Below, piece by piece: positions 12,422-63,002 of a stretch of DNA of 64,000 bases. This DNA is from Antechinus flavipes. Its lineage: Eukaryota. Each line of letters opens with the position of its first letter. Position 1 is the first letter of the stretch. Where the stretch lies: contig NC_067403.1 of assembly GCF_016432865.1 (NCBI RefSeq), positions 248,186,001 through 248,250,000 of the forward strand, given 5' to 3'. The notes beneath the pieces were generated by a model, which worked only from the letters and a program-made list of their open reading frames with translations, was not told the DNA's origin and did not search any database. Made by a program: the position numbers and the translations under genes.

Positions 12422-13948
12422 CTGTGCTTCCCCCATGTACTTCCCTCACTGCCCTTGCCCACCTCTCTTAGAGCATGGCTGCCTTGGGACCACTTTCCTG
12501 TCCTACCAGACTGCCAGTTCCCAGATTAGAGTTTCCCAGGGACCTTTGCATGGCAGGATCCAGCCATGCCCCTGTCTCACTGACCAAACTGTGGACCTAG
12601 GGAATGATTTGAAGATAGATCTGCTAATCTACTGGACCCTACTTGGGAATAGCATCTTTGTTTTTGACAAATACTAATTTACCAAGGAGGTACTGCCATA
12701 GCACTTAAGACTCCAATGACCCATAACATTTGAGACAATCAATTTGGATACTGTTCCCACAGGATCTACAAATTCCTGCATTGTTTATGCATATATGAAT
12801 TATACGTGAGAACTGCTATTCAAGGGCTAAGGATGATTTTGTCATGGTCTAGTCTAGTGGATTTCAAGAATATCGACTTTGCCTTGCCTAGCATTTTTAA
12901 CTCTCCTTCTCCAGGGGACCAATTCTGCTTATAAGAATCTCCCCTGCTCTGAAATTAATTTTCTCCTTTTACTATCCTATCTCCAATTTGCTTTGTTTGG
13001 CTCCAGCCATTCACAAGTTAAAGCATTAAAGCCTGGTTCTGTTCTCAATAGCTGCTCGACACAATCTATATCTAAGTACGTCTGCCCATACTTTTTAGAG
13101 CATATCCATGGCTCTTCTCCCTACATGGCTTTTCTACTTTAATCTATAGTGGTTCCAACCTATATTCCTCATATTTGCCAACCAATAGTAAATCCATCAT
13201 TTCAGATTTCACAAAACTGTTCAGTCTAGTCCCTAGAGCTCTTCAAGTTTCAATGTGGATGAGAGGATAATTACAATGATAGAAATCAAGGAGGAATAGT
13301 CTTTTCTCTTCTTCCAAATCAAGGAGATCATTTTAAACCAACATCTCCCTTGGTGGTGGAGACACCTATGTCCCCTTATACCTTTACTGATTCCATTTTT
13401 GGGAGTTATTGCCAGCATTATTGCTTCTGCTTCTGGGCACCATAGGTGGGCCATCTCCTTTTTACATCTAGGACCCCTGTAAATCCCTAAGAAGTGCTTT
13501 GGTACAGCCTGCCTCAAAAAAATGAACTTACTGAGCACCTAGGAACTCTAGACTCCAATATGGACAGCCTATAGATTATGCTAATCACTCATGACTTCAA
13601 TTGAGATGCAAGAATCCTATTAGACTTCTTTAGGTCCTCAGTTAGCTCACTGATATTAGCCTTTTTCACCTGGATAGCAACCTGGCCAGTATCCAGTGCT
13701 TCCTCTCCACCAAAACCTCTGGAACTTGAGACAGATGTTGCAGACTCTTAGAATCAACTCCTACACTCTTATCAAGTTCTTGATCATGGTAGATTCCAGC
13801 ACTTTGGCTACCATGGGCATTGACCTCTTTTTGAAAAAGGGCCTTTGTTTTTTAGAGGGGAATGACTCCAGTGGTGACATCATCACTCTGCAATCTGGCT
13901 CTGAGCCCAGCAAGGTCAAGAATCCTGCCATTTTCTAAGAACCACTCC

Positions 13949-14294
13949 TGTGAAGACTGAGTTAGTACTCTGGATACCTTAGAATCAGCCAGAGTCAGGA
14001 TACACAAAAGTCCCTGGTCTTTATTCTTGTTCTTTAGGGTAGAAGTGAATTGGATGGACGCAGTATCTCCATGGCCTCTCCTCTTCATCTCCTGCCCCAA
14101 AGTGACTCTGGCTAGTCTTACTACACCCCCTAGTCCCTCCTACAATTCTCTGTATATACCAATTATCAAGCCAGAATAGTGGAAGGGCCATTTTTCAAAC
14201 ATATGCTTAGAGAGTACTGTCCAATCGATAATTAGCCTTAAATGCTTGGTTGTCTGGCCTCAGTGCATCAACTCAAGAATTTCAGTCCTTTACA
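13949..14294 (-). mobile_element. Solo LTR-B in the HSF1 pseudogene 3'UTR
   Basis: TGTGAAG...CTTTACA termini; TSD CACTCC/CTCTCC; minus-strand AATAAA at 14025-14020. Empty site AAGAAC-CTCTCC-CTCTGG at ~49001-49018. Confidence 0.9.
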
Positions 14295-14788
14295 CTCTCC
14301 CTCTGGGAAGAGGGGTGGAATGATCCAATCATCAGGCTTCCTTAGCAGCCTTCCTCAAAATAGAGGAGAGGTACTGACCCTTTGTGTTTATGCTCAGAGA
14401 AATTTCCAGAAATCTCATTTGGAATAGTCTTGTGGAGGACAAGGGGCAAAAGTTGAGACCCAGGGTATAATGACGCAGCCACCCACTTGAGCAAGGACAG
14501 AAGGTGCCCAAGGAAATTTTCTGGACAGAGCTTAGTATATGCAAGAGCCCCAGGTGAGCAGAGGCCAACAGCATAAAAGAACCCATTCAACATCCGACAT
14601 GCCATGAGATGGGACCCTGACTGCCACCATTCCCATTTTTCTGTATCTCCACAAGGCAGCAACTTAAGCTTGCACCACCATCCATATGTTTTCCTTTTGT
14701 TTGGTTTTGATCCCTCTGATTATTAATAGAATTACATGTTGGATTTTTTACATGAAAGAAGTTTCTTTTCATTCCCCAATGCATGCAT

Positions 14789-14811
14789 ACACACACACAC
14801 ACACACACACA
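14789..14811. repeat. (CA)n microsatellite
   Basis: Pure CA run. Length differs among copies (e.g. ~49518-49547). Confidence 0.9.
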
Positions 14812-15039
14812 TAAACACTACATAAATATATGGTATTATATATTTGTTATATTCACACATACATAGACACACCTGTCTACACATATACATATGTATATAC
14901 AGTCAGATATATGAAAAGATCAAATAAAAAAGAAAATATAAAAGTAAAAGTTTAGATTCTACTTCTCCGTGCACTAAAAAAAAAATTCATTTTCATGTCT
15001 GGACCCCAAAGTATGGAAGATACTTATTGAATTTTCTCT

Positions 15040-17087: not shown

Positions 17088-17223
17088 NNNNNNNNNNNNN
17101 NNNNNNNNNNNNNNNNNNNNNNNNNNNNNNNNNNNNNNNNNNNNNNNNNNNNNNNNNNNNNNNNNNNNNNNNNNNNNNNNNNNNNNNNNNNNNNNNNNNN
17201 NNNNNNNNNNNNNNNNNNNNNNN
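17088..17223. other. Assembly gap (136 N)
   Basis: Run of N. The paralogous position (28742-28861) is a ~120-bp TA/TG low-complexity tract. Confidence 0.99.
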
Positions 17224-20200: not shown

Positions 20201-20327
20201 TTCTGGTCATTGCTATGGTATGGATGACAGAAGAGTTAGTGATCTCCATTCCTATCCTACATTCAGTTCAGCCTCAGGAAACAAAAAATAAACTGGATGA
20301 ACGAGTGAATGACTCAGAAAATTCTTA

Positions 20328-20495
20328 ACTCACCAGCTTTAACTTCAGAACTAAGCCCTTTCATAGAATGGTTTAATGTCAGTGTCCAGGGACTTTATGC
20401 AGCCCTGGCAGCCCTGAGGCTCTTGGGAGATAGTGCTCCCTTGGAGGTTCTGGTAGCTCTGCTGCCAACTCCTGAACAAAACAAACAATTAAATT
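20328..20495 (-). promoter_or_regulatory. Candidate OR-2 promoter and exon 1
   Basis: TAATTG (20491-20486), two O/E-like sites, donor CTG|GTGAGT (GT 20333-20332). Confidence 0.45.
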
Positions 20496-21140
20496 CTGTT
20501 CTGACCATGAGAAAAGAACAATTTTCTCATGGATATTTTGTGATTCTTTCCTTGTTTTTAGCAAAGTGAGATAGAATGGGACCTGGGAAAGGCTTCTAGT
20601 CCTGCTTCTTCCATCTCCTAACTGGGTGACATTGACCTAGTCATTGAACAACATTAAATCTCAATTTATTCTTCTTTGAAATGGGTATAATTGTGCAGCC
20701 TGGTTGTGCAGTGGGCAAGATACTGGTCCTTGAATCAGGAACACCTGAGTATATGACTTTAGATACTTGATTTCAACTTGCTGTGTGACTCTGGGCAAGT
20801 CACTTTACCTTGTTTACCTCAAAAGAACAACAAAATAACAGCAACAAGAAAACAAAAATTTGTATTAGTCACAGTCCTGAATTCAAATCTGTCCACAGAC
20901 ACTAGCTCCAAATTATTGAACCTCTGTTTGCTTTAGTTTTACCTCAATTCTACAATGAGGATAATAATAATACCTGCTCCCAGGTTGATTGTGCAGATCA
21001 AAAGTGATGGGACTTATGAAGCATTTAGTTCTCTATTTGGTATGTGAGGATGCTATATAACTACTAACTACCATTACCATCATTATCATCATCATCACCA
21101 TCCTAATACTCATACACTGGCTATATCCCCACAGAAGCTC

Positions 21141-22782
21141 TTTCTGGTGGGTCATGAAACCTGTCTCCAGAATCAGTGTGTTCTCATCAAAAAACCAAAA
21201 AAAAATAGTATAAAGAGGTAAATTTAGAAGTTCTCTAGGGTTATCTGTGGCTTCCCCTTTCTTTTGTTTCTCCTTTCTATTATTTATGTCTGCCTTGGGA
21301 CTGAAGAATATGCCAGTGCTGTGTGAAATCTGATACTGTACAAAAAAATGTGAGAAATGTTTGGAAGTACATGCAGGTGCATTACCTGTTTTTATTACTT
21401 GTGGCATGTCCATAGCTGCAAAGGCCTGTGTAAGGAATTCAGTGATCACCCAGGCCATCTCTTTTGCTGCTGGTACTGCATAAGTAAATCCTGAGAAGGT
21501 GTCCATGGCAACATGGATAAAAGACAGATGACCAAAAGATTTAAATTGGGTCACATCTATTTGCTAGATTTTATTGGGCTTCAAATCATGAGGGTTCTTC
21601 CCTGGAGGCAGTGTAGGAGTATGGAAAGGGAAGTAAGCTATACAGGTTTTTACTATGCTTCTAGCTTCCTCTTTTGTTATTCCAAACTGCAGATGTAAGG
21701 CTCAAGCTGCCTGATGATATTTAGAGTGAGATTCTTGCACTGCCTGAAATAGAGGAGCGTTGGATAACATTATGAAGAGGTGATTTACCTTTGTTTCCAT
21801 AACAACAATTGGTCCTGGAAGAACAGTATGAGAGGGGACATGCAAGAGGGAATACTTAGTTGGGCGGTTTTGCATCTGCGTCTGAAGTTCCTTAAAAAGC
21901 TGAAATATGTTAGAGGCTACAAATTTATTGGACTGTGGCAATTCTTTATAACACATCTACTGAATAAGTTGATTCAGATATTATATTTATATTTCCTGGG
22001 AAATAAGTAAGAGCTAGCATAACTGCATACAACTCATTCTGTTGAGTGAACTGACTGCTCTTTTTATAAATAAGTTAGGAGAATATGCAGTGCAAATGTT
22101 ATGTTTGGACACATCTGTAAAGATGGTCAGCCCTTTAAGAGGGATCTTAGAAAACTTTTCTTCAAAATCCCATGGCCAATGATGTAATAGCTAGGCTATC
22201 TTTAAGGGAGACTTCTGTGTTAAATTAGAAGCTGTGGCCAATAAAATTTGCCACTATGGGATAGTTTCACAGCATACATTAGAGAACAAGCCTTTTTCAC
22301 AACTTTGATAACTTCCAGATTAAAAGGAGTGTGTCTTCTCGTGATTTGACCTGGACACCCATTAGATTCAGGTTCTTCAATCACATCAACCTAAATATAT
22401 CCCATCCCTCCTCCCTTGCTTTAACTAATGCCATTATAAATGGCATTAATCAGGAGAAAAGAGGGGGGCAAAACTGTGTTGTTGGTGCCTATGGTGTCAT
22501 TGCTCCTCCAGCTCCTATTTTTGGTCCCCTAAAGATGGAATGGAGAGAGAAGGATCAGGAAGCATAGGATACCCCAGGGGTGCCTGTGTGGGCATTGATG
22601 AAGGGGAGTTGAGAAACTGAAAAACATCACGCCCCTCAAACTTCCCAGTTTAATGCCTATTTTCATCCCTTCCCCATGCATACCTTCTGGGGCTGTGGGT
22701 ACTATTCCCATATTTGTTCTCTTCATACTTCCTTGTTTGATATCCCATGCTAAAATCATTCTTTTCCTTATATGTGGGATTT
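21141..22782 (-). mobile_element. ERV relic copy 2 (integrase C-term, env and LTR absent)
   Basis: ORF 21033-21554 (HVAMDTFSGFTYA...VIKTGNAPA) and ORF 21702-21956 (RNaseH/HHCC). Confidence 0.85.
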
Positions 22783-24065
22783 CTTTTTTTTTAATTAGTA
22801 TTAAAGCTTTTTATTTACAAAACATATGCATGAGTAATTTTTCGACATTGACCCTTGCAAAACCTCTTGTTTCAAAATTTCCCTTTTCTCCCCATCATCT
22901 CCCCTCACTGGTAGGTAATCTAGTACATGTTAAATATGTTAAAATATATGTTTAATCCAGTATATGCATGCATGTTTTTACCATTATCTTGCTGTACAAG
23001 AAAGATCAGATCAAGAAGAAAGAAAAAAACAGAAAGAAAACAAAATGCAAGCAAATAGCAACAGAGAGAGTGAAAATGCTATGTTGTGTACACACTCAGT
23101 CACAGTCCTCTCTCTGGGTGTAGATGACTCTCTTCATCACTGAAAAAGCAATACAGGTTTGAATCATCTCATTATTGAAGAGAGCCCCATCCATCAGAAT
23201 TGATCATTGTATAGTCTTGCACTTGCCTTGTATAATGATCTCCTGGTTCTGCTCATTTCACACAGTATCAGTTCATGCAAGTCTCTCCAGGCCTCTGAAA
23301 TCATCCTGTTGGTTGTTTTTTATAGAACAATAATATTCCAAAACATTGGGTAACTCATGAGCATCCACTCAGTTTCCAGTTTCATGCCACTACAAAAAGG
23401 GCTGCCAGAAACATTTTTGCACATAAGAATTCCTTTCGCTCCTTTAAGATCTCTTTGAGATATAATCCCAGTAGAAACATTGCTGGATCAAAGGTTCTGA
23501 ACAGTTTGATAACTTTTTGAACATAGTTCAGAATTGCTCTACAGACTCTACAGAATGGTTTAATACATTCACAGTTCCACCAACAATGTATCAGTGTCCC
23601 ATTTTCCCACATCCCGTCTAACATTCATCATTCTCATTTCCTATCATCTTAGCCAATCTGAGAGGTGTGTAGTGGTATCTCATAGTTGTCTTAATTTGCA
23701 TTTCCCTGATCAATAGTGATTTGGAGCATTTTTTAATATGACTAAAAATCAGACAATTTTTAGATTAAAAAAAAATTGAAACTTTCATTTTCTTTGACCA
23801 TTTATCAGTTGGAGCATGGCTAGAACTATTATAAATTTGAATCTATTCTCTATATATTTTAGAAATGAGGCCATCAGAACTTTTGAATGTAAAAATGTTT
23901 CCCCAGTTTACTGCTTCCCTTTAATCTTGTCTGCATTAGTTTTTTTTTTTTTTTTTGGTACAAAACTTTTAAACTTAATATAATCAAAATTATACATTTT
24001 GTGATAGATAATGACCTCTAGTTCTTCTTTGGTTACCAATTCCTTCCTCTTCCACAAATCTGAGA
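22783..24065 (-). mobile_element. Truncated L1 copy 2
   Basis: ORF 23382-23624 (GTLIHCWW...FDPAMFLLGLY) and L1 3'UTR. Confidence 0.9.
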
Positions 24066-26603
24066 CTGTGGTTCCCCCTGTACTTCCCTCACTGCCCTTG
24101 CCCACCTGCCTCTGAACATGACTGGCTTGGGGCCACATCCCTGTCCGATCAAACTGCCAGCCCCCAGATTAAAGTTTCCCAGGGACCTCTGCATGGCAGG
24201 ATCCAGCAATGTCCTTGCCTCACTGACCAAGCTATGGACCTAGGGTCTGATTTGAAGATAGATCTGCTAATTTACTGGACCCCACTTGGGAATAGCATCT
24301 TTGTTTTTCCCAAATGCTAATTTACCAAGGAGGTATTGCCATAGCACTTAAGACTTAAATGACCTTTAACACTTGAGACAATCAACTTGGACACTGTTCC
24401 CATAGGACCTGCATTGTTGATCTCTGAACCTTCCATGAGAACTGCTGTTCAAAGGCTAAGAATGATTGTGTCATGGTCTAGTCTAGTGCATTTCAAGAAT
24501 ATCAATATTGCCTTTGCCTAGCATTTTTAACTCTCCTTCTCCAGAGGACACCTTCTGCTTACAAGCATTTCCCTTGCTCTGAGATTAAGTAAACTTCTTC
24601 TCTCCTCTTACTAGCCTATCTCTAATTTGCTTAGTTTGGCTCCAGCCATTCACAGGTTAAAGCCTGGTTCTGCTTTCAATAGCTGCTCAAAACAATCTAT
24701 ATCCAAGTACGTCTGCCCATACTTTTTAGAGCATATCCATGGTTCCTCTCCCTACATGGCTTTTCTATTTTAATCTATAGTAGTTCCAACCTGTATTCCT
24801 CAGATTTGACAACCAATAATAAATCCATCATTTCAGATGTCACAGAACTGTCCAATCTAGCCCGTAGGGCTCATCAAGTTTCAGCGGGGATGAGAGGATA
24901 ATTACAATGATAGAAATCCAGAAGAAGCAGTCTTCTCCCTTCTCCCAAAGCAAGGAGACCATTTCAAGCCAACATCTCTCTTGATGGTGGAGACATCTAT
25001 GTCCCCTTATACCTTTGCTGATTCCATTTGGAATGGAGAGAGTGAGCCCAGCATTATTTCCTATGCTTCTGGGCACCATGGGTGGGCCATCTCCTTTTTA
25101 CATCTAGGACCCCTGTAAATCCCTAAGAAGTGCTTTGGTATAACCTGCCTCAAAAAAAAAATGAACTTACTGAGCAGCTAGGAACTCTAGAGTCCAATGT
25201 GGACATTCTATAGATTATGCTAATCACTCATGGCTTCAATTGAGATGCAACAATCCTATTAGACTTCTTTAGGTCCTTAATTAGCTAACTGATAGTACCT
25301 TTTTCACCTGGACAGCAACCTGGCCAGAATCCATTGCTTCCTCTCCTCCCAGAAGTCACCAAAGCCTCTGGATCTTGAGACAGATGTTGCAGACTCTTAG
25401 AATCAACTCCTACATTCTAATCAAGTCCTTGATCCTGGTAGATTTTAGCACTTTGGCTACCATGGCGACTGACCTGCCTATTTTTTTTTTTTTTGATAAA
25501 GGGCCTTTGTTCTTAGAGGGAAATGACTACAGTGATGACCCCACCATCACCCTGTAGTCTGGTTCTGAGCCTAGCAAGGTCAAGAATCCTGCCATTTTCC
25601 AAAAATTTCTGCTGTGAAGACCGAGTTAGCACCCTGCATACCTTAGAATCAGCCAAAGTCAGGATAAGCAAAAGTCCTTGGTCTTTATTCTTAGTCTTTA
25701 GGGTAGAAGTGAATTGGATGGATGCAGTATCTCCATGACCTCTCCCCTTCATCTCCTGCCCCAAAGTGACTCTGACTAGTCTTACTACACCCCCTAGTCC
25801 CTCCTACAATTCTCTTTATATACCAATTATCAAGCCAGAATAGTGGAAGGGCCATTTTTCAAACATATGCATAGAGAGTACTGTCCAATCAATAATTAGC
25901 CTTAAGTGTTTGGTTGTCTGGCCTCAGTGCATCAACTCAAGAATTTCAGCCCTTTACACTCTCCCTCTGGGAAGAGGGGTGGAATGATCCAATCATCAGG
26001 CTTCCTTAGCAGCCTTCCTCAAAATAGAGGAGAGGTACTGACCCTTTGTGTTTATGCTCAGAGAAATTTCCAGAAATCTCGTTTGGAATAGTCTTGTGGA
26101 GGAAAAGGGGCAAAAGTTGAGACCCAGGGTATAATGACGCAGCCACCCACCTGAGCAAGGACAGAAGGTGCCCAAGGAAATTTTCTGGACAGAGCTTAGT
26201 ATAATGCAAGAGCCCCAGGTGAGCAGAGGCCAACAGCATAAAAGAACCCATTCAACATCCGACATGCCATGAGATGGGACCCTGACTGCCACCATTCCCA
26301 TTTTTCTGTATCTCCACAAGGCAGCAACTTAAGCTTGCACCACCATCCATATGTTTTCCTTTTGTTTGGTTTTGATCCCTCTGATTATTAATAGAATTAC
26401 ATGTTGGATTTTTTACATGAAAGAAGTTTCTTTTCCTTCCCCATGCATGTATACACACACACACACACATAAACACTACATAAATATATGGTATTATATA
26501 TTTGTTATATTCACACATACATAGACACACCTGTCTACACATATACATATGTATATACAGTCAGATATATGAAAAGATCAAATAAAAAAGAAAATGTAAA
26601 AGT
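24066..26603 (+). pseudogene. HSF1: Processed HSF1 pseudogene, copy 2
   Basis: MAGSSNVLASLTKLWT*..SDLKIDLLIYWTPLGNSIFVF..FTKEVLP; same deletion and structure as copy 1. TSD at 26604-26622. Confidence 0.9.
25613..25958 (-). mobile_element. Solo LTR-B, copy 2 (hybrid)
   Basis: TG...CA termini at the same position as in copies 1 and 3. Left part matches copy 3, right part matches copy 1. Confidence 0.9.
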
Positions 26604-32815: not shown

Positions 32816-34445
32816 TTTCCAGTGGGTCATGAAACCTGTCTGCCAGAATCAGTGTGTTCCCATCAAAAAACCAAAAAAAAATAGTATGAAGAGGTAAATT
32901 TAGAAGTTCTCTAGGGTTGTCTGTGGCTTCCCCTTTCTTTTGTTTCTCCTTTCTACTATCTATGTCTGCCTCAGGACTGAAGAATATGCCAGTGCTGTGT
33001 GAAATCTGATGCTGTACAAAAAAATGTGAGAAATGTTTGGAAATATATGCAGGTGCATTACCTGTTTTTATTGCTTGTGGCATGTCCATAGCTGCAAAGG
33101 CCTATGTAAGGAATTTAGTGATCACCCAGGCCATCTCTTTTGCTGCTGGTACTGCATAAGTAAATCCTGAGAAGGTATACAGGGCAACATGGATAAAAGA
33201 CAGACAACCAAAAGATTTAAATTTGTTCACATCATTTCATTGGGCTTCAAATCATGAGGGTTCTTCCCTGGAGGCAGAGTAGGAGTATGGAAAGGGAAGT
33301 AAGCTATACAGGTTTTTACTATGCTTCTAGCTTCCTCTTTTGTTATTCCAAACTGCATATGTAAGGCACAAGCTGCCTGATGATATTTAGAGTGAGATTC
33401 TTGGGCTGCCTGAAATAGAGAAGCGTTGGCTAACATTGTGAAGAGGTGATTTACCTTTGTTTCCATAACAAAAATTGGTCCTGGAAGAACAGTATGAGAG
33501 GGGACATGCAAGAGGGAATACTTAGTTGGGCAGTTTTGCATCTGCATCTGAAGTTCCTTAAAAAGCTGAAATATGTTAGAGGATACAAATTTATTGGGCT
33601 ATGGCAATTCTTTATAACACATCTACTGAATAAGTTGATTCAGATATTATATTTACATTTCCTGGGAAATAAGTAAGAGCTAGCATAACTGCATACAACT
33701 CATTCTGTTGAGTGGACTAACTACTCTTTTTATAAATAAGTTAGGAGAATATGCAGAGCAAATGTTATGTTTGGACACATCTGTAAAGATGGTCAGTCCT
33801 TTAAGAGGAATCTTAGAAACCTTTTCTTCAAAATCCCATGGCCAATGATATAATAGCCAGGCTATCTTTAAGGGAGACTTATGTGTAAAATTAGGATTGT
33901 GGCCAATAAAATTTGCCACTATGGGATGGTTTCACAGCATACATTAGAGAACAAGCCTTTTCCCACAACTTTGATACTTCCAGATTAAAAGGAGTGTGTC
34001 TTCTCATGATTTGACCAGGAGACCCATTAGGATCAGGTTCTTCAATCACATCAACCCAAATATATCCCATTCCTCCTCCCTTGCTTTAACTAATGCCATT
34101 ATAAATGGCATTAATCAGGAGAAAGGAGGGGGGCAAAATTGTGTTGTTGGTGCCTATGGTGTCATTGCTCCTCCAACTCCTATTTTTGGTCCCCCAAAGA
34201 TGGAATGGAGAGAGAAGGATCAGGAAGCAGAGGATACCCCAGGGGTGCCTGTGTGGGCATTGATGAAGGGGAGTTGAGAAACTGAAAAACACCACACCCC
34301 TCAAACTTCCCAGTTTAATGCCTATTTTCATCCCTTCCCCATGCATACCTTCTGGGGCTGTGGGTACCATACCCATATTTCTTCTCTTCATACTTCCTTG
34401 TTTGATATCCCATGCTAAAACCATTCTTTTCCTTATATGTGGAAT
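32816..34445 (-). mobile_element. ERV relic copy 3
   Basis: ORFs 33227-33547 (HHCC: ESHSKYHQ...SIVKTCIAY) and 33680-33919 (LTIFTDVSK, RNaseH start). Confidence 0.85.
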
Positions 34446-44375: not shown

Positions 44376-46242
44376 TTTCCGGTCGGTCATGAAACCTGTC
44401 TGCCAGAATGAGTGAGTTCTCATCAAAAAACCAAAAAATTAATAGTATGAAGAGGTAAATTTAGAAGTTCTCTAGGGTTGTCAGTGGCTTTCCCTTTCTT
44501 TTGTTTTTGTTTCTCTTTTCTACTATCTATGCCTGTCTTGGGACTGAAGAATATGCCAGTGCTGTGTGAAATCTGATGCTGTACAAAAAATGTGAGAAAT
44601 GTTTGGAAGTACATGCAGGTGCATTACCTGTTTTTATTGCTTGTGGCATGTCCATAGCTGAAAAGTCCTGTGTAGGGAATTCAATGACTACCCAGGCCAT
44701 CTATTTTGCTGCTGGTACTGCATAAGTAAATCCTGAGCAGGTGTCCATGGCAACATGGATAAAAGACAGATGACCAAAAGATTTAAATTGGGTCACATCT
44801 ATTTGCTAGATTTCATTGGGCTTCAAATCATGAGGGTTCTTCCCTGGAGGCAGTGTAGGAGTATGGAAAGGGAAGTAAGCTATACAGGCTTTTACTATGC
44901 TTCTAGCTTCCTCTTTTGGTATTCCAAACTGCAGATGTAAGGCTCAAACTGCCTGAGATATTTAGAGTGAGATTCTTGGGCTGCCTGAAATAGAGGAGCA
45001 TTGGATAACATTGTGAAGAGGTGATTTACCTTTGTTTCCATAACAAAAATTGGTCCTGGAAGAACAGTATGAGAGGGGACATGCAAGAGGGAATACTTAC
45101 TTGGGCGGTTTTGCACCTGTGTCTGAAGTTCCTTAAAAAGCTGAAATATGTTAGCGGCTACAAATTTATTGGGCTATGGCAATTCTTTATAACACATCTA
45201 CTGAATAAGTTGATTCAGATATCATATTTATATCTCCTGGGAAATAAGTAAGAGCTAGCATAATTGTATACAACTCATTCTGCTGAGTAGACTGACTATT
45301 CTTTTTATAAATAAGTTAGGAGAATATATAGCACAAATGTTATATTTGGACACATCTGAAAGATGGTCAATCCTTTAAGAGGGATCTTAGAAACCTTTTC
45401 TTCAAAATCCCATGGCCAATGATGTAATAGCCAGGCTATCTTTAAGGGATACTTATGTGTAAAATTAGGATTGTGGCCAATAACATTTGCCACTCTGAGA
45501 TGGCTTCACAGAATGCATTAATTTGTACATTGATATAAAAGTTGTATATCTTGTTATGTCCTTTCCCAGCTAATTGTATTACTTATTTAGTGGCTTTTAA
45601 CAAGATTCTAGCCACAAACACTGGATAAGAATTAAGCCTTTGGTCTGGTTATGCTGTTTTTGCTATGGATTTCTTGTCAATTAGGGGTTAGGATTTCATA
45701 AGTCAAATTCTCTAATAATATCCTCACATAAGATGATGCAGATCCATAAAGAGGGCAAGCCTTTTTCAGAACTTTGACAACTTCCAGATTAAAAGGAGTG
45801 TGTCTTCTTCTGATTAGACCTGGACGCCCATCAGGATCAGGTTCTTCAATCACATCAATCCAAATATATCCCATCCCTTCTCTCTTGCTTTAACTAATGC
45901 CATTTATAATCAGGAGAACGGAGAGGGGCAAAACTGTGTTGGTGGTGCCTATGGTGTCATTGCTCCTCCAGCTCCTACTTTTGGTCCCCCAAAGATGGAA
46001 TTGAGAGAGAAGGATCAGGAAGCAGAGGATACCCCAGAGGTGCCTGTGTGGGCATTGATGAATGGGAGTTGAGAAATTGAAAAACACCACGCCCCTCAAA
46101 CTTTCCAGTCCAATGCCTATTTTCATTCCTTCCCCATGCATACCTTCTGAGTCTGTGGATACCATCCCCATATTTGTTCTCCTCATACTTCCTTGTTTGA
46201 CATCCCATGCTAAAATCATTCTTTTTCTTATATGTGGGATTT
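44376..46242 (-). mobile_element. ERV relic copy 4
   Basis: ORF 45677-45874 (RHTPFNLEVVKVLKKACPLYGSASSYVRILLENLTYEILTPN) resembles the class II ERV capsid N-terminus. Confidence 0.85.
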
Positions 46243-47528
46243 CTTTTTTTATTATTATTAAAGCTTTTTATTTATAAAACATATGCATGAGTAATTTTTC
46301 AACATTGACCCTTGCAAAACCTCTTGTTTCAAAATTTCCCCTTTTTCTTCCCATCCCCTCTCCTACCTGGCAGGTAGTCTAGTACATGTTAAATATAGTA
46401 AAATATATGTTAAATCCACTATATGTATGCATATTTATAGCACGATCTTGCTTCACAAGAAAGATCAGATCAAGAAGGAAGGAAAAAACTGAGAAAGAAA
46501 ACAAAATGCAAGCAAATAGCAACAGAGAGAGTGAAAATGCTATGTTGTGGTCCACAGTCACAGTCCTCTCTCTGGGTTTAGATGGTTCTCTTCATCAGTG
46601 AAAATGCAGTACAGGTTTGAATCATCTCATTATTGAAGAAAGCCACATCCATCAGAATTGATCATTGTATAGTCTTGCTGTTGCCATGTATAATGCTCTC
46701 CTGCTTCTGCTCTTTTCACACAGAATCAGTTCATGCAAATCTCTTGAGGCCTCTGAAATCATCCTGGTGGTCATTTTTTATGGACCAATAATATTCCCAA
46801 ACATTCATATACCATAACTGATTCTGCCATTCTGCAACTCATGGGCATTTACTCGGTTTCCAGTTTCATGCCACTACAAAAAGGGCTGCCAGAAACATTT
46901 TTGCACATATGAATCCCTTTCCCTCCTTTAAGATGTCTTTGAGATATAATCCCAGTAGAAACATTGCTGGATCAAAGGTTCTGAACAGTTTGATAACTTT
47001 TTGAGCATAGTTCAAAATTGCTCTACAGAATGGTTTGATCCATTCACAGTTCCACCAACAATGTATTAGTGTCCCAGTTTTCCCACATCCCCTCCAACAT
47101 TCATCATTCTCATTTCCTATCATCTTAGCCAATATGAGAGGTGTGTAGTGGTATCTCATAGTTGTCTTAATTTGCATTTCTCTGAACAATAGTGATTTGG
47201 AGCATTTTTTAACATGACTACAAATAATTTCAATTTTTTCATCTGAAAATTGTCCGTTTTCTTTGACCATTTATCAATTAGAGAATGGCTTGACCTATTA
47301 TAAATTTGAGTCAATTCTCTATATATTTTAGAAATGAGGCCTTTATTGGAATCTTTGAATGTAAAAATGTTTTCCCAGTTACGGCTTCCTTTCTAATTTT
47401 GTCTGCATTAGTTTTGTTTGTACAAAACTGTTAAACTTTAATATAATCAAAATTATACATTTTGTGATCAATAATGACCTCTAGTTCTTCTTTGGTTACC
47501 AATTCCTTCTTCTTCCATATATCTGAGA
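46243..47528 (-). mobile_element. Truncated L1 copy 4
   Basis: ORF 46866-47270 is the L1 ORF2p C-terminal domain. Confidence 0.92.
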
Positions 47529-49516
47529 CTGTGGTTCCCCCCTGTACTTCCCTCACTGCCCTTGCCCATCTGCCTCAGAACATGGCAGGGACCTCTGCAT
47601 GGCAGGATCCAGCAATGCCCTAGCCTCACTGACCAAGCTATGGATCAAGGGTCTGATTTGAAGATAGATCAGCTAATCTACTGGACCCCACTTGGGAATA
47701 GCGTCTTTGTTTTTGTCAAAGGCTAATTGACTAAGGAGGTACTGCCCTAGCACTTAAGACTTCAATGACACATTTGAGACAATCAACTTGGACACTGTTG
47801 CCATAGGACCCACACATTCCTGCATTGTTGATCTCTGAACCTTCCATGGGAAATGCTGTTCAAGGGCTAAGAATGATTGTATCATGGTCTAGTCTAGTTC
47901 ATTTCAAGAATATCGATATTGTCTTTGCCTAGCATTTTTAACTCTCCTTCTCCAGAGGACCCCTTCTGCTTACAAGCATTTCCCTTGCTCTGAGATTAAT
48001 TAAACTTCTTCTCTCCTCTTACTAGCCTATCTCTAATTTGCTTAGTTTGGCTCCAGCCATTCACAGGTTAAAGCCTGGTTCTGCTTTCAATAGCTGTTTA
48101 ACTCAATCTATATCCAAGTACGTCTACCCATACTTTTTAGAGCATATCCATGGCTCCTCTCCCTACATGGCTTTTCTGCTTTAATCTATAGTGGTTCCAA
48201 CCTATATTCCTCAGATTTGACAACCAATAATAAATCCATCCTTTCAAATGTCACAGAACTGTCCAATTTCGCCCATGGGATCACCAAATTTCACTGTGGA
48301 TGAGAGGATAATTACAATGATAGAAATCAAGAAGAAGCAGTCTTCTCCCTTCACCCAAATCAAGGAGACAATTTCAAGCCAACATCTCTCTTGGTGGTGG
48401 AGACTCCTATGTCCTCTTATACCTTTACTGATTCCATTTTTTGGGAATTATTGCCAGGATTATTGCCTCTGCTTCTGGGCACCACGGATGGGCCATCTCC
48501 TTTTTATATCCAGGATCTCTGTAGACTCCTAAGAAGTGCTTTGGTGTTGCCTACCTCAAGAAAAATAAACTTAGTGAGAACCTAGGAACTATAGACTCCA
48601 ACATAGACAGCTTATAGACTATGCTAATTACTCATGGCTTCAATTGAGATGCAACAATCCTATTAGACTTCTTTAGGTCCTCAATTAGCTAACTGATATT
48701 AACCTTTTTCACCTGGATAGCAACCTGGCCAGGATCCAGTGCTTCCTCTCCTCCCAGGAATCACCAAAGCCTCTGGAACTTGAGACAGATGTTGCAGACT
48801 CTTAGAATCAACTCCTACACTCTAATCAAGTCCTTGATCCTGGTAGATTCTAGCATTTTGGCTACCATGGCGACTGACCTGCCTATCTCTTTTTGAAAAA
48901 GGATCTTTGTTCTTAGAGGGGAATGACTACAATGATGACCTCATCATCACCCTGTAGTTTGGCTCTGAGCCCAGCAAGGTCAAGAATCCTGCCATTTTCC
49001 AAGAACCTCTCCCTCTGGGAAGGGGGAGAAATGATCCAATCATCAGGATACACGTCTCTTCCTTGGCAGCCTTCCAGAAAATGGAAGAGGGGCACTGTCC
49101 CTTTGCATTTTTGCTCAGAGAAGTTTCCAGAAATCTCATTTGGAATAGTCTTGTAGAGGAAAAGGGGCAAAAGGTGAGACCTAGAATATAATGAGGCAGC
49201 CACCCACCTGAGCAAGGACAGAATGTTCTCAAGGAAATTTTCTGGACAGAGGTTAGTTTAATGCAAGAGCCCCAGGTGAGCAGAGGTCAACAGCATAAGG
49301 GACCCACTCTTAACACCAGGCATGCCAAGATGGGACTCTGCCTGCCACCATTCCCATTTTTCTGTATCTCCACAATGCAGCAACTTAAGCTTGCACCACC
49401 CATGCTAGTTCCATATGTTTTCCTGTTTGTTGGTTTTGATCCCTCTGATTATTGATAGAATTACATTTTGGATTTTTTACATTAAAGAAGTTTTTTCTCC
49501 TTCCCCATGTGCGCGT

Positions 49517-49705: not shown

Positions 49706-49799
49706 AAAAGTTTAGATTCCACTTCTCTGTGCATAAAAAAATGTATTCAGTTTCATGTCTGGATCTTAAAGTATGGAAGATACTGAATGGATTTTCTCT

Positions 49800-54920: not shown

Positions 54921-57900
54921 TCTGTTCTGACCATGAGAAAAGAATAATTTTCTCATAGATATTTTGTGATTCTTTTCTTGTTTTTAGCAAAGTGAAATAG
55001 AATGGAACCTGGGAGAGGCTAGTCCTACTTCTTCCATCTCCTAACGTGGTGACATTGGCCAAATCATCGAACAACATCAAATCTCAATTTAGTCTTCTTT
55101 GAAATGGGTATAATTGTGCAACATGGTTGTGGAGTGAAGAGGATACTGGTCCTTGAATCAGGAACACCTGAGTTCAAATATGACTTTAGATACTTGATTT
55201 TAACTTGCAGTGTGACTCTGGGCAAGTCACTTTACCTTGTTTACCTCAAAACAACAACAACAAAATAACAATAAGAAAACAAAAGCTTGTATTAGTCACA
55301 GTCCTGAATTCAAATCTGTCCATAGACACTAGCTCCAAATCATTGAACCTCTGTTTGCTTTAGTTTTACCTCAACTATACAATGAGGATAATAATAATAC
55401 CTGCTCCCAGGTTGATTGTTCAGATCAAGAATGATGGTACTTTTAAAGCATTTAGTTCTCTATTTGGTATATGAGGATGCTGTATAACTACCAATTACCA
55501 TTACCATCATCATAATCATACTCATACACTGGCTATATCCCCACAGAAGCTCTGTTGAATGCCTGACCAGTGTTACTAACCCAGTCATATGAGAATTTGT
55601 CAAACTGAAAAACAATAACATCTGTAGAGGAAGAGTTTAAATTGGAAGCTCCAGCCTTACCATTACAATGAGACGCAACATAAAATAGGTTTCCACAGTA
55701 CACTTCTAATAATCCAAGATGGTTTCAAGAAGGTTTTTAATGAGAATGATCTGTGAACCCCCTTTCCAAATCTTCTGACTATTTGCTTTCAACAACACAA
55801 AGTTGCATATCATCTTTGTAACATAATATCATTAGATTTCTCAGCTGATTATTTATATAGTAACAGAAGGAAATAAGGGAACTATTCTGGGATGATAGAA
55901 TGAAAAGGAAGAAAGATACTTGTGTGTGGCCATCCATTGAGAATCAATCTGCATTCAAATGTAGAACCTTTGTGATATTGTGGAAATGATTTGAAATGTT
56001 GAAGAATTGAAAGAATCCCTCAAACTTATCAGAAATAGTCCAAGAGTGAAATGTAAAATTTGCACACAACCCCAAATGATTGTGTCCATGATCTTGAAAG
56101 TTTCAAATTGCTGCAGAAACCAGCCTAAAATTGTTCAGATATGTGCACGCTTGCTTTCACAGAAGGGAAAAGGCGCATGAAACATAATTGAGTAATTATT
56201 AGTTTGTGGCATCAAGAAAATTTGGTTGGCTCTAACTCTGTGAACTATCATTCCAAACCTCTAAAGAGTTTGTGTACCATTAAAAGGAAATTTGCATTAA
56301 AGTACTGTACCTCTAGCCTGTGGAACTATTCTGGTTCCTATTCCAACCTTTCACAAAGTAAGTTCTTGCGAGGTATTTGTTGAAATTCACGGACAAAAAA
56401 GGGAAACAAAGCTCAACCCTGATCCAAATATCCTGTGTAACATAGTAATGATGTGCACAAAATAAAAATTCTTCAACATATTGACGTTCTGCCCTGACAA
56501 TAATGACCGTGATTTTCTTGATAAAAATTTATTGTGTTAATTGAAGGGAATTATGTGGTTTACCTTTTATGCTTTATTGTCAACCATAAAATGTTGAAAT
56601 GAATAAATGAACGGGGGAAAACATTTATTCAGTGCCTATTTATGTACAAAGTACTGTTCCCAGTGCTGAAAATATACACTGAGAAGTAAAACAACCCTTG
56701 CTCTCAGAGATCATTAATCTAATCATACATTATAACTCATTTCAGATGCAAATGTTACATAAAGACTATGGTTCATTAACTTAGAAAATAGAAACACATA
56801 CCATTTCTGTTGATATTATAATCCATTTGTAGTGTTGTTGATAAAAAAAAAATTATAGTAGTGTTCAATGGTTGACCATTGACACTGCTAGTATCTTTGG
56901 TGGCAAAAGTGTTTTCCTCATAAGTGTCTTGTTAGTATTGGCTGCAGGGAGAGCAGGAGAATGTAGACATTGAAAAAACAGCAGATTTTATCTTTATAAA
57001 AGATCATATTGTAAATTGTAAATTATCATATTGTAAAATGTAAAACATGTATCTCCTCCATTCAATCAACACAATAGATTTTACCAGAATCATATCTTCT
57101 AGATTTCAAGTCACACAATCCATTCTCTGTACTCTCTATTTACTTTTCCTTTTATGTTACTTCCTCCTTCATTTAAAAGATAAATTAAAATAAAATTCCT
57201 TACATAGTACCAGAGTCTACTCATGATCAAGTCTGGAATTTTTCCCCAGACATCTTCATTCAGATAATTTGTTGTCCTTTATGAGGTCTTTCTCAGAAGA
57301 ATGATTAAATGATGCAGAAGTTTTTCCAGAGCTTTGTCTGCAATGATACTCAACTAAAGAAGAAAAAGACCCTTTCTGAATTGAGGACAACCACGGAAAG
57401 TTCAAAGGACTTTTATAGGGAGTCATATTCTATTATGCATGTAGGTGGAACTCACAGTTGATGATGGAGATCTGAGGAACCTCTTTTTCTATTCCCAGTC
57501 TTATTAGAGACTCAATCTGTGTTTTAGAAAATCTCAACAATGGAAACTGATGATGATGCCAGTTTATACGCAAGGTTTTTGATAGACTTGGGTTATAGTG
57601 GAAAGAAACCTGAAGTGAGTGTAGAAGGCCTAGGGTTTAGTCAGAACTGAGCCATGGATAAATTGGATGACTTAGAGAAAGCTACTCAGCTCTTTTGGTG
57701 GAATTGGCTTATAGTTCCATGTAGGAACATATTCAGACTTCCTTCAATTTGTTAAGGGGAGCCAAATTATTCCATTCTGAACTCCTAATATCATGCATCC
57801 TTATCTGTATCTTTACCACTTTGAGCTGGGCTGGAAGCACATAGAAGTTTGTTCAATAAAATATAATCATTGCTGTGAGATGGGAAACACAAGTAGAGAA

Positions 57901-58591
57901 AGATTTCTGGTGACCTTCAGGATTTTCAGGATAGTGATAAAGATTAACAAGTAAGAAATAAAGATGACAAGAAATGTAAAGAAAAAGATGATGAGTGACC
58001 CTAAAATAAAGACTACTGTAAATTTTAGAATGAGAGCTCAAAGAGAAAGGGACCATCACAGAAAAAGTGATGGATCACATTAGCCTTACAAAATAAAAGG
58101 TTAAATGTTTTCTTTTACTGTGGAGGTTATCAGAGAGGCCCAGATATGAGCACAACTAGCTAGAAATATATACATTGTCATGGTATGGTTGTAACATAGA
58201 ACCTTACACATAGCCACATGGTGATCACAAGCCATGGAGAAACTTCCTTCCATAGAAGAAACTTTCAGTGGTAGCAGAGACCTCCTAAAAGAACAGCTGT
58301 GCTACCTATTCATTTTAGGAAATGACCTTGTCCCCTGGGAGGAGCAAAGCCATCACTCTGAGAGTAACATTTGAGGAGTATGCAAAATCCACCAAAAAAG
58401 TGGTTATTGAGGGGAAAATGTGGGTTGTAGAAGCAGGAATCCCATGAGATCATAGTTACTACTCTCCCAGGTTCCCTACCAGAGTGATGAGGTAGAGGTC
58501 AATGACCATTATAAAAAGAGGAATCTGAAACTCTAGACCTTCTGTTTAGCCCAATGAGGATGAACTCACTACAGATCTGTTGTCCATATAT

Positions 58592-60369
58592 TGTAATAAT
58601 GCCAGAGAAACTGAGACAAGAGAGAGATTAGGTTTTTAAAAATTTATTATTAAAGCTTTTAATGTACAGAACAGATGCATGGGTAACTTTTCAACATTGA
58701 CCCTTGCAAAACCTTCAATTCCAATTTTTCCTCTCCTTTCCCCATCCCATTCCCTTAATGGTAAGTAGCCTAATACATGTTAAATATGTTAAAGTATATG
58801 TTAAATCTAATATATGTATACACATTTATACAGTTATCTTGCTGTGCAAGAAAAATCTGATCTAGAAAGAAAGTAAAAAAAAAAAACTGAGAAGGAAAAC
58901 AAAAATGCAAGCAAACAATAACAGAGAGGGTGGAAATGCTATGTTGTGTTCCAGACTCAGTTCCCAGTGTTCATTCTCTGGGTGTAGCTGACTCTCTTCA
59001 TTACTGAACAGTTGGAATTGGTTTGAATCATCTTATCGCTAAAGAGAGCCACATGCATCAGAATTGATCATTGTATAATCTTGTTATTGACATGTATAAA
59101 GATCTACTGGTTCTGCTCATTTCATTTAGCATCAGTTCATGTAAGTCTTTCCAAGACTCTCTGAAATCATCCTGTTGGTCATTTCTTACAGAACAATAAT
59201 ATTCCGTAACATTAATGGACCACAATTTATTCAGCCATTCTCCAATTGCTGGGCATCCATTCAATTTCCAATTTCTAGCCATTACAAAAAGGGTTGCACA
59301 AACATTTTTTGCACATGTGGGTCCTTTTCCCTTCTTTAAGATCTCTTTGGAATATAAGCCCAATAGTAAAACTGCTGGGTCAAAGGGTATACACAGTTTC
59401 ATAACTTTTTGAGTATAGTTCCAAATTGTTCTCCAGAATGGTTTGATTCATTCACAATGTATCAGTGTCCCAGTTTTCCCACATCCCCGCCAACATTTAT
59501 CATCATCTTAGCCAATCTGAGAGGTGTGTAGTGGTATTTCAGAGTTGTTTTAATTTGCATTTCTTTGATCAATAATAATTTGAAGCACCTTTTCATAACT
59601 AGAAATAGTCTCAATTTCTTCATCTGAAAATTGTCTCTTTGTGTCCTTTGACCATTTATCTATTGGAGAATGGGCTTGATTTCTTATAAATTTGAGTCAA
59701 TTCTCTATATATTTGGACATGAGGTCCTTATCAGAATCTTTGACTATAAAATTTTTCCCAATTTATTGCTTCTCTTTTAATCTTGTCTGCATTAGTTTTG
59801 TTTGTACAAAAACCGTTTAACTTAATATAATCAAAATTATCTATTTTGTGATCAATAATGATCTCTAGTTCTTCTTTACTCACAAATTGCTTCCTCTTCC
59901 ACAGGTCTGAGAGGAAAATTATCCTATGTTCTTTTAATTTGTTTATAGAGATTAGGTTTTAAATATATTAATAGTGGAGAATTTGAGCTGGTAAAAACTA
60001 GTTGAGTGAATGAGAGTCTTGTTTCAAAGCACCCAGCAGTGAGTAATTAATTCCAGAGACTTTTATAGGGTTCTAGCTATCAGAGAAACAAAGGCAGGAG
60101 GGGGCAGAACACTGGGTAAATCATAATTTAAGGAAGGACCATCACTTTAATCCTGACAGGATGGAGGTCAGGATAAGAAAATTGGGTGTAGGAGTGAATG
60201 AGTCTTAGGCAAGAGATACTCAGGCATTTAAGATAAACCATCTGGAGTTTGTGACTCACTGGAATGTGAGAGTGACCAGAGCTTAATGGGGTAAAGAAAA
60301 GTGGGGGTGGTGGCCATAATATTTTATTCAGGGTGCATCATAATAATTCAGGGAAACTGAGGTATTGCA
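58592..60369 (-). mobile_element. Solo LTR (~455 bp net) inserted in codons 2-3 of the OR pseudogene
   Basis: TGTAATA...TATTGCA inverted termini; TSD ATATAT (58586-58591) / AGATAT (60370-60375); minus-strand TATAAAA near 60061-60067. Confidence 0.8.
58641..59946 (-). mobile_element. Truncated L1 nested in the solo LTR
   Basis: ORF 59058-59402 (FDPAVLLLGLY...WKLNGCP..GEWLNKLW) is L1 ORF2p. TSD AGAGATTAGGTTTT(T)AAA at 58623-58640 and 59947-59963. Confidence 0.92.
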
Positions 60370-60864
60370 AGATATCATTCAAGAGTAATGTCATTCACCT
60401 ATAACAAAAGAATAACTATCAGAAAAAGCCACTCTGCATGAAAAATGACACCAAGACAAAACACAGTCAGAGACTTGTCTTATGTTAGGTACAGAAATAA
60501 GAAACTGAGGGGCCAAAAACATGAAAGTAGTTTTCAGTTGTGTTGTAGTCACTCTAGGTCACAGAAATTCCTTGTTTCAATTTCTCATAGAGAGAAAGAA
60601 TCCCTGAAGTATTAAAATGAATACTAAACTAATGAATAATAAAATTCATTTTAATATATATATGTATATATGTATATATACATACACACACATAAATACA
60701 TGATTGGAGATGCAAAAAAGAATCTTTAAACATAAGAAAACTGAGACTGAAATTTGCCTAGGGCTATATGATATGTAAGTGTCTAAATATAAACAAACTC
60801 CAACTCTAAATCTATGACAATTTCTACTAGTAATTTTGACTTTGAAAAAGTTTGGATTCTACTT

Positions 60865-63002
60865 GGGACCAGCCCATTGCAAAATGGCAGAGGCTATGCT
60901 GGATCTCAAAGTTCTGTCTTCACAGTGGGTGGCAGGAGCAGAATTGACTACAGTAGTGCCTGAGACTGAGGCATCTTTATTCCTTTAACTCAAGTAACTA
61001 CAAGAACTAAGCCTCAACTTTTCCTTCCCTCTTTATCTGGTCTACTCTCAGTAGTCCAGCCCTTTACTTCCCTCACTGCCTCTGCCCACCTCAGGGGCTG
61101 CCTCCCTCAAGTCACATAATTGCTCTGCCCACTCTGTCAGCTCCCAGAATGGAGTTTTCTAGAGGCCCTGGTATGTCAGGACCTACCAGTGACCCTACGT
61201 TGCTGACCACTCTGTGGACCTAAAGTGAATGATCTGGACCGAGTTGTAGTTCTAATGAATGACCTGAGGACAGGTCAAATCTGAGGACAGATTTGATAAT
61301 CTGCTGGGCCCTGATTGGAAATAATATCCATGTTTTAACCAAGCCCAGTTTGCCAAGAAAGTACTGCCAAAGAGCTTCAAACACGACAACATGGCAAGAT
61401 TCATCTGACAACTCAATATGTCTAGTTTTTGGAAGTTTGTCCACATTGAACAAGGTTGCCTGGTGAAGTCTGAGAAAGATGACACCATGTTTCATCATTC
61501 ATACCTTATCTGGGTCCAGAAGCAGTTCCTAGAGTACTTCAAGAGGAAAGTGACCAGTTTTTTTTAGCATAAAGCATGAGGATACAAAGGTCCAACAGGA
61601 AAATGTTACCAAAATCCTGGCAAATGCTAAGAAGATGAAGGGCAAACAGGAGAATATGGACTTAAAGCTGAGATCCTGAAACACAAGAATAAAAAGCCTT
61701 ATGGAGTGAGATTGACGGCTTTTGGCAGAAGCATGCCCAACATTTAAAGTAGTCAACAGCTGATCCAATTTTACATCTCTAGTTCAATCAAACTAGATGC
61801 TCTGGGTGAAGGGCGAGATCTCCCTGATGTTGAATGATAGTATCAAGATATTTGTTTTTGGAAACAAGACATCTTGTTTCCCTGAGCTGAGTCCCAGCAG
61901 GCAGGCTGTGCTTTGAACTTGGCAAACCCACAATCCTTTGTACTTTGGATGATTTTACTCTCTAGCAAAATGTTGCCTTGACCAGCACGAGGCAATCACT
62001 GAGAGTAGATTTATTGGAGCTCCTCCTATTTCTCGGGAACCTAAAAACCATCCAGCATATCTATCGACATGCTCACAACCCCCCTTATCATATTTCCAAG
62101 TGAACTGAACCAGGTACTTTGCTCCTGTTTCTGTCACACTGTCTCTGGTCCTGCACTCTGCTGGATGCTCTAATGATCCTTAAAATCTGAGACAATCAGC
62201 TGGCAGATTATTCCCACAGAATCCATAAATGACTTCATTGTTCACCCTGAGTCTGCCATGAGAGCTGCTACCCAAGATCTAATTATTGTGTCATGATCTA
62301 ATCCATTTGTAATTTTGCATGAATATAAACTCTGCCTTTGCATGTTAAGCCCTCCTTTTAAGTAGGGGGACTTTTGCAGGAAGTTTTTTCCTTACTCTGA
62401 AATTAATTAAACTTCTCTTTGATTCCTTGCTTTCCTGTCTCTACCTTGTTTTGTTTGGTTCCAGCCATTCACATGGCTCCCTCATTGGCAAGACAGATGA
62501 GAGGATCAATGTCATGATATGAATCAAGGAAGAAGGCCACCATCTCTTTTGGTGGTGGGGACTCCTGTGTCACCTTGAAACTTCATCAATTCCATTCTTC
62601 AGGAGAGTGAGCCCAGCACTGCCAGCTCTGTTTCTGGTACTATGGGTGGACCATCTCCTCTCCCTCTTCATGTCCCCTCCAGATGGACCCTCCTCTCAAC
62701 ACCATGAATGCCATAAGGTGGAATCTGCCTGCCATTTTTCATATTTTCCAACAACTCCACAGAGCAACAACAACCTCCTATCAATTGGTTTGGGCTTTTC
62801 TTGTCTACACTTTATACTAATCCTTCTATTTGTTGATAGAATTTTATTTTAAATTTTTACATGAAAGAAATTTCTCTTCTCCTTCTATATAGAGAATGTA
62901 TATTCATATATACCTACCTACATTCATATATGTATATATATGTTTATGTTTATGAAGACAGACATATCTATAAACTGAGCAGTTATAAAAAATAAGAAAA
63001 AG
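60865..63002 (+). pseudogene. HSF1: Processed HSF1 pseudogene, copy 5 (keeps 5'UTR, DBD and HR-A/B; C-terminus deleted)
   Basis: ATG at 61149: MEFSRGPGMSGPTSDPTLLTTLWT. 61334-61558: [74 protein letters not shown]. Then IKHEDTKVQQENVTKILANAKKMKGKQENMDLKL...SLVQSN*MLWVKGEISLMLNDS. Left TSD at 60845-60864. Confidence 0.93.

Follow-up and report, generated by a model that had tools for sequence, protein, structure and literature searches.

What is the repeat-like DNA that follows the stop codon of each olfactory receptor (OR) gene in this 64,000-nt stretch of the Antechinus flavipes genome, and how did it come to stand there again and again? An earlier note on the stretch had read it as a retrocopy of the heat shock factor 1 (HSF1) mRNA lying tail-to-tail with the receptors. 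We are confident that the stretches are dead copies of a single processed HSF1 pseudogene, which entered the cluster once, ~90 nt beyond the stop codon of an OR and on the opposite strand, and which was likely amplified passively, without a function of its own, as OR units duplicated and recombined. The copies derive from the mRNA of the host's HSF1 gene and share one site; a shared long terminal repeat (LTR) lies in exon 7, at least 16 copies exist, they sit in mosaic units, and their divergence from one another is neutral.

We call the whole stretch (C6:248186001-248250000 of the 3.19-Gb genome, whose contigs are written C1, C2, C3, C4, C6 and C7) the window. It is an array of ~11.6-kb units, 86-94% mutually alike, with one minus-strand OR per unit. 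The five window ORs have open frames and Pfam 7tm_4 matches, and the HSF1 retrocopies beside them are on the plus strand. Copies inside the window are named c1-c5 (copies 1-5), those to its left u1-u3 and those to its right d1-d8.

Origin from the host HSF1 mRNA

The Pfam Vert_HS_TF profile matches two genes with introns, one on C1 and one on C4, and gives many broken matches on C6. The parent is the gene at C1:649217956-649161930, which has 13 exons, GT-AG introns and a 522-aa open reading frame. All five window stretches are colinear with its exons and both untranslated regions (UTRs) at 67-87% match; the vertebrate-HSF gene on C4 gives a single 54-bp match to them. When exon 3 of the parent was compared with PDB entries, HSF1 matched best (E 1.9e-23), followed by HSF4 (8.8e-17) and HSF2 (1.4e-13). 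Copy 1 scored 386 bits against HSF1, whereas 20 shuffles and the reversed sequence yielded only two matches, both at 0.0 bits. The HSF1 gene is also the best nucleotide match of the retrocopies with UTRs included, at an overall identity of 68-83%. The host HSF1 protein is identical to that of the devil at 517 of 522 residues, to those of bilby and diprotodonts at 504-511, and to that of the opossum at 499.

The identification as HSF1 is thus borne out by the colinear exons and UTRs and by the ranking of exon 3. Another HSF paralogue as parent was ruled out by the same evidence and by the HSFX/Y-like loci, which match the HSF1 protein at 32-44% in the DNA-binding domain (DBD) only. Given the colinear C1 matches and the controls, neither another paralogue nor a scrambled source accounts for the stretches, in all five of which the exons lie in order. 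The HSF1 parts are not endogenous retrovirus (ERV) or LINE sequence, although two nested LTRs are. No single copy has all of the DBD, HR-A/B, regulatory region and HR-C that had been read from the translations: mRNA positions ~464-921 are missing from copies 1-4, and ~927-1095 and 1361-2148 from copy 5. Further HSF-domain loci were seen at C7:89835, 22498719, 22519453 and 34659559, C4:119004959 and C2:61492997; from their motifs rather than from any tool's naming, we take these to be HSFX/Y-like, HSF3-like, HSF5-like and HSF4-like.

A single retroposition

Each feature of an L1-type processed pseudogene that we tested is seen in the copies: loss of introns, a poly(A) tail, a target-site duplication (TSD) with an empty site, the cut site, limits at the transcript ends and a disabled, neutrally evolving frame. 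The exon junctions are fused, as had been proposed, 10 of 12 by automatic count and E4/5 and E5/6 by eye in copy 5, with no one copy holding all 12. An A-rich tail lies 15-20 nt past TATAAA in all 16 copies with a 3' end, which share an identical mRNA endpoint and an identical right flank, and the parent gene has no A run at this position. Six copies retain the 5' junction, in which the HSF1 leader is preceded by a ~19-bp target copy; the match begins in GC-rich leader 12-20 nt upstream of mRNA position 1 as numbered here, and then gives way to host flank. Within the window both target-site copies are found at copy 5 only, copies 1-4 having lost their 5' ends, so the TSD that had been noted is present as a pair in just one of the window copies.

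The insertion lies at a single site for the whole family, ~70-115 nt beyond the OR stop. In the window copies the distance from the stop to the start of the 3' target copy is ~85-97 nt, in good agreement with the 75-95 nt given before. The empty site, with a single target and both flanks, was recovered in 12 of 14 aligned carrier-free ORs; of the other two, one is unclear and x342 is rearranged there. The shared endpoint and flank, the target copies and the empty sites in sister ORs show that one HSF1 mRNA copy was inserted, as had been suggested. The target begins TG/AAAAA on the plus strand, so that the cut strand reads TTTTT/CA; this differs by one mismatch from the TTTT/AA-like consensus of the L1 endonuclease. 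From the tail, the ~19-bp duplication and the T-rich cut site we infer, in line with the earlier proposal, that L1 machinery made the copy.

Copy number and the order of lesions

The five copies counted in the earlier note are there, but the count is too low for the cluster. Searching 584 kb of C6, we observe 16 copies with a 3' end over 283 kb (248.1616-248.4444 Mb), 15 of them adjoining near-full ORs and one an OR fragment. A 17th, partial piece (p4, 248305829-248306729) retains a 5' end, the LTR and a piece of exon 9, and tail-like remnants were seen by eye as possible at three OR fragments. Carriers make up 15 of the 31 near-full ORs in the central 404 kb. Thirteen of these 15 are open; the OR of d3 is frameshifted and that of d8 has one in-frame stop. 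No copies were found at 248.086-248.16 or 248.445-248.67 Mb, a weak AT-rich match at 248.476 Mb having been dropped when it was not recovered again, and two genome-wide DNA searches, which give lower bounds, found none on other contigs apart from the C3 locus described below and simple-repeat matches. Copy d8 (C6:248442878-248444370) is rearranged: exons 7-13 and part of the LTR are inverted, and the end of its 3' UTR is present a second time in inverted orientation. At x342 (C6:248342192-248342354), an OR related to carriers d2-d5 has no retrocopy, and its target site is joined to the 3' end of another OR type; it likely lost the retrocopy by rearrangement.

The middle of each window copy is not HSF1 but a dispersed ~640-bp repeat, LTR-A, which has 65-87% matches on several other chromosomes. 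Elsewhere it has TG...CA ends and, at loci L042, L045 and L046, 4-bp duplications, and most of 22 loci share an extent of ~550-700 bp but not their flanks. The ends and duplications at dispersed loci identify it as a solo LTR, presumably of ERV1 type from the length of its TSD. LTR-A sits at mRNA position 923, in exon 7, in 11 copies (u1-u3, c1-c5, d1, p4 and d8); the 4-bp target copy on its left is kept in copy 5, and an identical one on its right in copy 1. It is the lesion common to all three deep lineages that keep the exon 7 region. A second, younger LTR of 346 bp, LTR-B, follows the HSF1 stop in c1-c3 only. The stretches said to translate as HSF1 are therefore partly LTR, with LTR-A in all five and LTR-B in copies 1-3. 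A further solo member of the LTR-B family (TG...CA, perfect 6-bp duplication) lies at window 12022-12386, in an L1 fragment left of copy 1 only.

The remaining lesions are nested. A +2 change at mRNA ~1220 is common to u1-u3, c1-c4, d1 and p4; deletion of 464-921 marks u1-u3 and c1-c4, a clade with 100/100 support in the retrocopy tree; loss of the 5' end marks c1-c4; and deletions of 927-1095 and 1361-2148 mark c5 and d1. Copies d2-d5 are reduced to the last 250 nt, and the 3'-most ~250 nt are the only part retained in all 16 copies. Death before amplification had been argued from a 1-nt deletion near codon 25 said to be common to all copies. We reject this proof, as the -1 change (mRNA 348, codon 24) is present only in u3 and c1-c4, five of the nine copies keeping the site; c5 and d1 have +1, and u1 and u2 are parental. 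Early death itself is nonetheless likely, because 11 copies, drawn from three deep lineages, have LTR-A at its exon 7 position, and because the stem before the first duplication is short. LTR-A would have entered exon 7 before the copies split, and lineage-specific deletions would then have trimmed the far end, the part beside the selected OR surviving by proximity.

Mosaic units

Passive co-amplification is supported, but the retrocopy did not ride every OR duplication: about half of the near-full ORs carry it, and the carriers are not one clade on OR coding sequence (CDS). The carrier label requires four changes on the OR coding tree, and a single carrier clade is rejected on the whole CDS (p-AU 1.6e-5) and, with x342 counted as a carrier, on each CDS half (0.0135 and 0.0145). 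It is not rejected on the last 154 nt of the OR plus flank (p 0.34), a short alignment with little power. In the CDS, u1 and u2 fall with the empty neighbour x149 (98/95); beside the insertion they instead join u3 and c1-c4 (94/88), which is also their place in the retrocopy tree. The carriers fail to form one coding clade because units recombine.

One such exchange is visible in the window. Unit 2 is 97-99% identical to unit 3 across the left part of the retrocopy and 96-100% identical to unit 1 rightward, and the order unit 1, chimera, unit 3 is that predicted for one unequal crossover. A single crossover in a part that makes up about a fifth of the unit is no demonstration that the retrocopy promotes recombination. 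Amplification as a whole probably proceeded via unequal crossover between the ~11.6-kb units together with conversion.

Neutral decay and age

Of 15 copy pairs, 14 show no significant difference in divergence between 0-fold and 4-fold sites (Fisher p>0.05; the remaining pair has p=0.04). All 13 copies scored contain nonsense codons, GC>AT changes outnumber AT>GC changes 515:93, and no open frame under purifying selection was found among the retrocopies. The retrocopy tree has a parent-to-root branch of 0.05 and root-to-tip distances of ~0.22-0.28; since the former is short against the latter, duplication began soon after insertion. Divergence (K) at 0-fold non-CpG sites of the conserved N-terminal half is 0.14-0.16, which at a neutral rate of 2-4e-9 per site per year would put the age at roughly 40-80 million years. 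The insertion is likely tens of millions of years old and older than the dasyurid radiation. Host and devil HSF1 have a derived residue in common at four codons (4, 33, 354 and 500), and at all four the copies keep the ancestral base. Codon 30 of the copies fits the Glu of Australian marsupials and not the Asp of opossum and placentals, a weak indication from one site.

Alternative explanations

Several observations pull against a family that died early and was carried passively. In the DBD and HR-A/B, copy 5 and d1 differ from the parent, the only sequence compared, by K0 0.14-0.16 and K4 0.41-0.46, and the K0/K4 of 0.31-0.40 is slightly below the 0.5 expected if dead on arrival. The exon 7 region is lost in d2-d7, where the presence of LTR-A cannot be checked. 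A/T sites differ less in the always-retained 3' segment than upstream (0.085 versus 0.143; 0.101 versus 0.150), and a putative ancestral OR poly(A) block stands beside 8 of 13 empty ORs versus 1 of 16 carriers. The low K0/K4 would fit a retrocopy that served for a time as a coding retrogene until the LTR was inserted, as would its full length at the start with 5' UTR and ATG (kept in c5 and d1) and the separate HSF1 retrogene on C3, which makes such a course feasible in this lineage. We give this very little credence: the parent-to-root branch is only 0.05, the copies share differences from the parent at 6% of 0-fold sites, copy pairs diverge neutrally, and the low ratio may come from synonymous change in the parent itself and from its GC richness. 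The chance of independent HSF1 retropositions into different OR paralogs, or of an assembly artefact, is close to nil. The scatter of carriers on the OR coding tree and the position of d8, 100 kb away from the other carriers, would suit separate origins, but the 3' end, the site and the LTR position are identical across lineages, d8 included, and these identical junctions refute them. An artefact is hard to reconcile with copies that differ by 1-35% and have nested indels, and DNA sequencing runs of three other organisms contain 0.24-0.37 of copy-5 words (shares of <=0.10, seen in 13 of 20 runs, were taken as no evidence).

The missing poly(A) block and the retained 3' segment invite another explanation, in which the OR 3' UTR was co-opted: the poly(A) signal, displaced by ~2.5 kb, decayed, and OR mRNAs would end in antisense HSF1 sequence, which selection would maintain and which might act antisense to HSF1 in those neurons. 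An AATAAA does occur in homologous context 0.87-1.27 kb behind 7 of 11 aligned empty ORs, and AACAAA at the same place in u1 and u2; u1, u2, u3 and d7 have no AATAAA within 2.5 kb. Because the ancestral block is mutated or missing beside carriers, carrier OR mRNAs likely read into antisense HSF1 sequence, as far as genomic sequence can tell. The contrast in block counts is softened by the fact that 5 of the 8 block-bearing empty ORs were queries chosen for the hexamer (3 of 8 among non-query empty ORs) and that the carriers represent ~8 lineages, not 16. A conserved antisense poly(A) signal in the retrocopy was sought and none was found across carriers; the AATACA of others is absent from copies 1-4. 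The 3'-most ~250 nt are indeed the sole part in all 16 copies, and the longest exact matches to HSF1 mRNA are of 33 nt for c5/d1 and of 21-29 nt for eight other copies, yet retention beside a selected gene requires no function and identity to HSF1 is only 68-83%. Constraint on the retained segment was rejected, as its A/T divergence (0.085-0.10) equals the neutral A/T value of 0.095 from 0-fold sites; G/C sites show little or no drop. Co-option is therefore improbable in our view. Its boldest form, in which the insertion rewrote the 3' UTR of an OR subfamily, the ancestral signal was lost, and neurons choosing one of 15 receptors would make abundant HSF1-antisense RNA that tunes the heat-shock response, is less probable again. 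A passively duplicated, dead HSF1 pseudogene remains the preferred reading.

Features of the window

Table 1. Retrocopies, olfactory receptors and crossover interval in the window (window positions).
Feature	Start	End	Strand
OR, sixth, 5' part; its retrocopy u3 (both target copies retained) just left of window	1	654	-
Copy 1: 5' UTR remnant, exon 1, start of exon 2 (mRNA ~197-460); no start codon, -1 at codon 24, stop at codon 51	12436	12706	+
Copy 1: 3' half of LTR-A in exon 7; right 4-bp target copy at 13048-13051	12707	13047	+
Copy 1: fused exons 7-13 up to stop codon; many stops/frameshifts	13048	13938	+
Copy 1: LTR-B, 346-bp solo LTR (TG...CA) just after HSF1 stop	13949	14294	+
Copy 1: 3' UTR, decayed poly(A) ~14924-14945, 3' target copy 14946-14964	14295	14964	+
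OR, unit 1, intact, 318 aa	15040	15996	-
Copy 2; LTR-A part ~24346-24678, LTR-B 25613-25958	24076	26622	+
Crossover interval inside LTR-B, unit 2: unit-3-like left, unit-1-like right	25637	25760	
OR, unit 2, intact	26697	27653	-
Copy 3; LTR-A part ~35981-36313, LTR-B 37220-37571	35713	38269	+
OR, unit 3, intact	38348	39304	-
Copy 4; LTR-A part ~47752-48090, no LTR-B	47550	49724	+
OR, unit 4, intact	49800	50756	-
Copy 5: 5' target copy; left flank homologous to sister-OR empty sites	60846	60864	+
Copy 5: near-cap 5' UTR to fused exons 1-7 (DBD, HR-A/B); +1 and +47 in exon 1, stop at codon 71; left 4-bp LTR target copy 61837-61840	60865	61840	+
Copy 5: near-complete LTR-A	61841	62478	+
Copy 5: exon 8/9 fragment, deletion, last ~340 nt of 3' UTR, poly(A) tail, decayed 3' target copy	62479	63020	+
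OR, unit 5, start codon outside window	63088	64000	-

Additional features recur in the units. L1-like 3' fragments lie left of every retrocopy (window 10765-12019, 22788-24065, 34457-35700, 46239-47528 and 58633-59912); they have no Pfam hit and presumably resemble the ORF2 C-terminus, and the edge of such a fragment replaces the 5' end of copies 1-4. Broken retroviral integrase remnants (Pfam rve, Integrase_Zn) occur per duplication unit, as at window 21036-21563 and 33230-33598 on the minus strand, and paired ~490-bp repeats, 67-70% alike and ~1 kb apart, lie upstream of each OR (e.g. window 2746-3231/3794-4286, with equivalents in every unit). An old, frameshifted OR pseudogene at 57820-58596 (-) is ~70% identical to the intact ORs, with no HSF1 copy detected beside it. 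A run of 136 N at 17088-17223 lies outside the retrocopies.

A separate HSF1-like retrogene on C3

We also observe a separate intronless HSF1-like sequence at C3:60510296-60509263 (-; locus L020:1854-821), with 3' UTR pieces at 60503199-60501843. It has no nonsense codon in ~217 codons, a K0 of 0.28 versus a K4 of ~1.0, and 64% GC. It retains the DBD and HR-A/B and is without HR-C and the activation domain; near codon 217 its frame changes relative to the devil protein, which is either real or an assembly error. It groups at 100/99 with predicted 'HSF1-like' proteins of devil (353 aa) and Gracilinanus (361 aa), and this grouping suggests an old marsupial HSF1 retrogene under apparent purifying selection, a candidate pan-marsupial gene. 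Its product could possibly be a dominant-negative or a constitutive trimer. The retrogene was not found in the literature searched, and it may merit more attention than the OR-cluster retrocopies.

Relation to known systems and significance

The OR-cluster family is an ordinary duplicated processed pseudogene, a known class. Like other duplicated L1-mediated processed pseudogenes it combines intron loss, poly(A), a TSD, one insertion followed by amplification at the DNA level, and neutral decay; it differs in its HSF1 parent, in the OR tandem unit as vehicle and in the paralogous empty sites within the same cluster. BNIP3 pseudogenes were co-amplified in the human 19p12 KRAB-zinc-finger cluster, where a processed copy was likewise carried by the duplication unit of an expanding family, with another parent and another family. 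Compared with HSF1 itself and with intron-poor genes of the HSFX/HSFY type, the copies derive from HSF1 exons 1-13 and both UTRs, have no open frame and are not HSFX/Y-like. The closest published case found is that of the equid LCORL retrocopies, described as one insertion with 17-35 copies in a ~30-kb segmental duplication, ~18 million years old, that supply most LCORL transcripts (PMC10249811). The two families are alike in one insertion followed by amplification, in common nonsense and frameshift variants and in later insertion of transposable elements into some copies. The HSF1 copies are far more decayed, fragmented and tied to a gene family under selection.

A search of the open literature, subscription journals not included, brought up no paper describing a marsupial HSF1 retrocopy or one inside an OR cluster. 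The terms 'retro' and 'intron' are absent from the main text, as distinct from the supplements, of a 2026 review of vertebrate HSFs (PMC13628046). A recent retrocopy pipeline requires 500 kb between events (10.64898/2026.06.26.734816), and pipelines that collapse nearby copies in this way would count the HSF1 family once.

No function is shown for the pseudogene, and its value is that of a neutral, single-origin tag inside an OR cluster whose paralogs still contain empty sites. Because these sites survive, the insertion marks recombination between paralogs. The tag reveals separate histories for OR coding sequences and their 3' flanks, places one unequal crossover within 123 bp and orders the LTR insertions and deletions. 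It also makes it testable where OR mRNAs end once an insertion displaces the poly(A) signal, and the retrocopies preserve a record of what a marsupial HSF1 mRNA once looked like. Altogether, the family serves well to mark the birth of ORs through unequal crossover and is a fossil marker rather than a new kind of gene.

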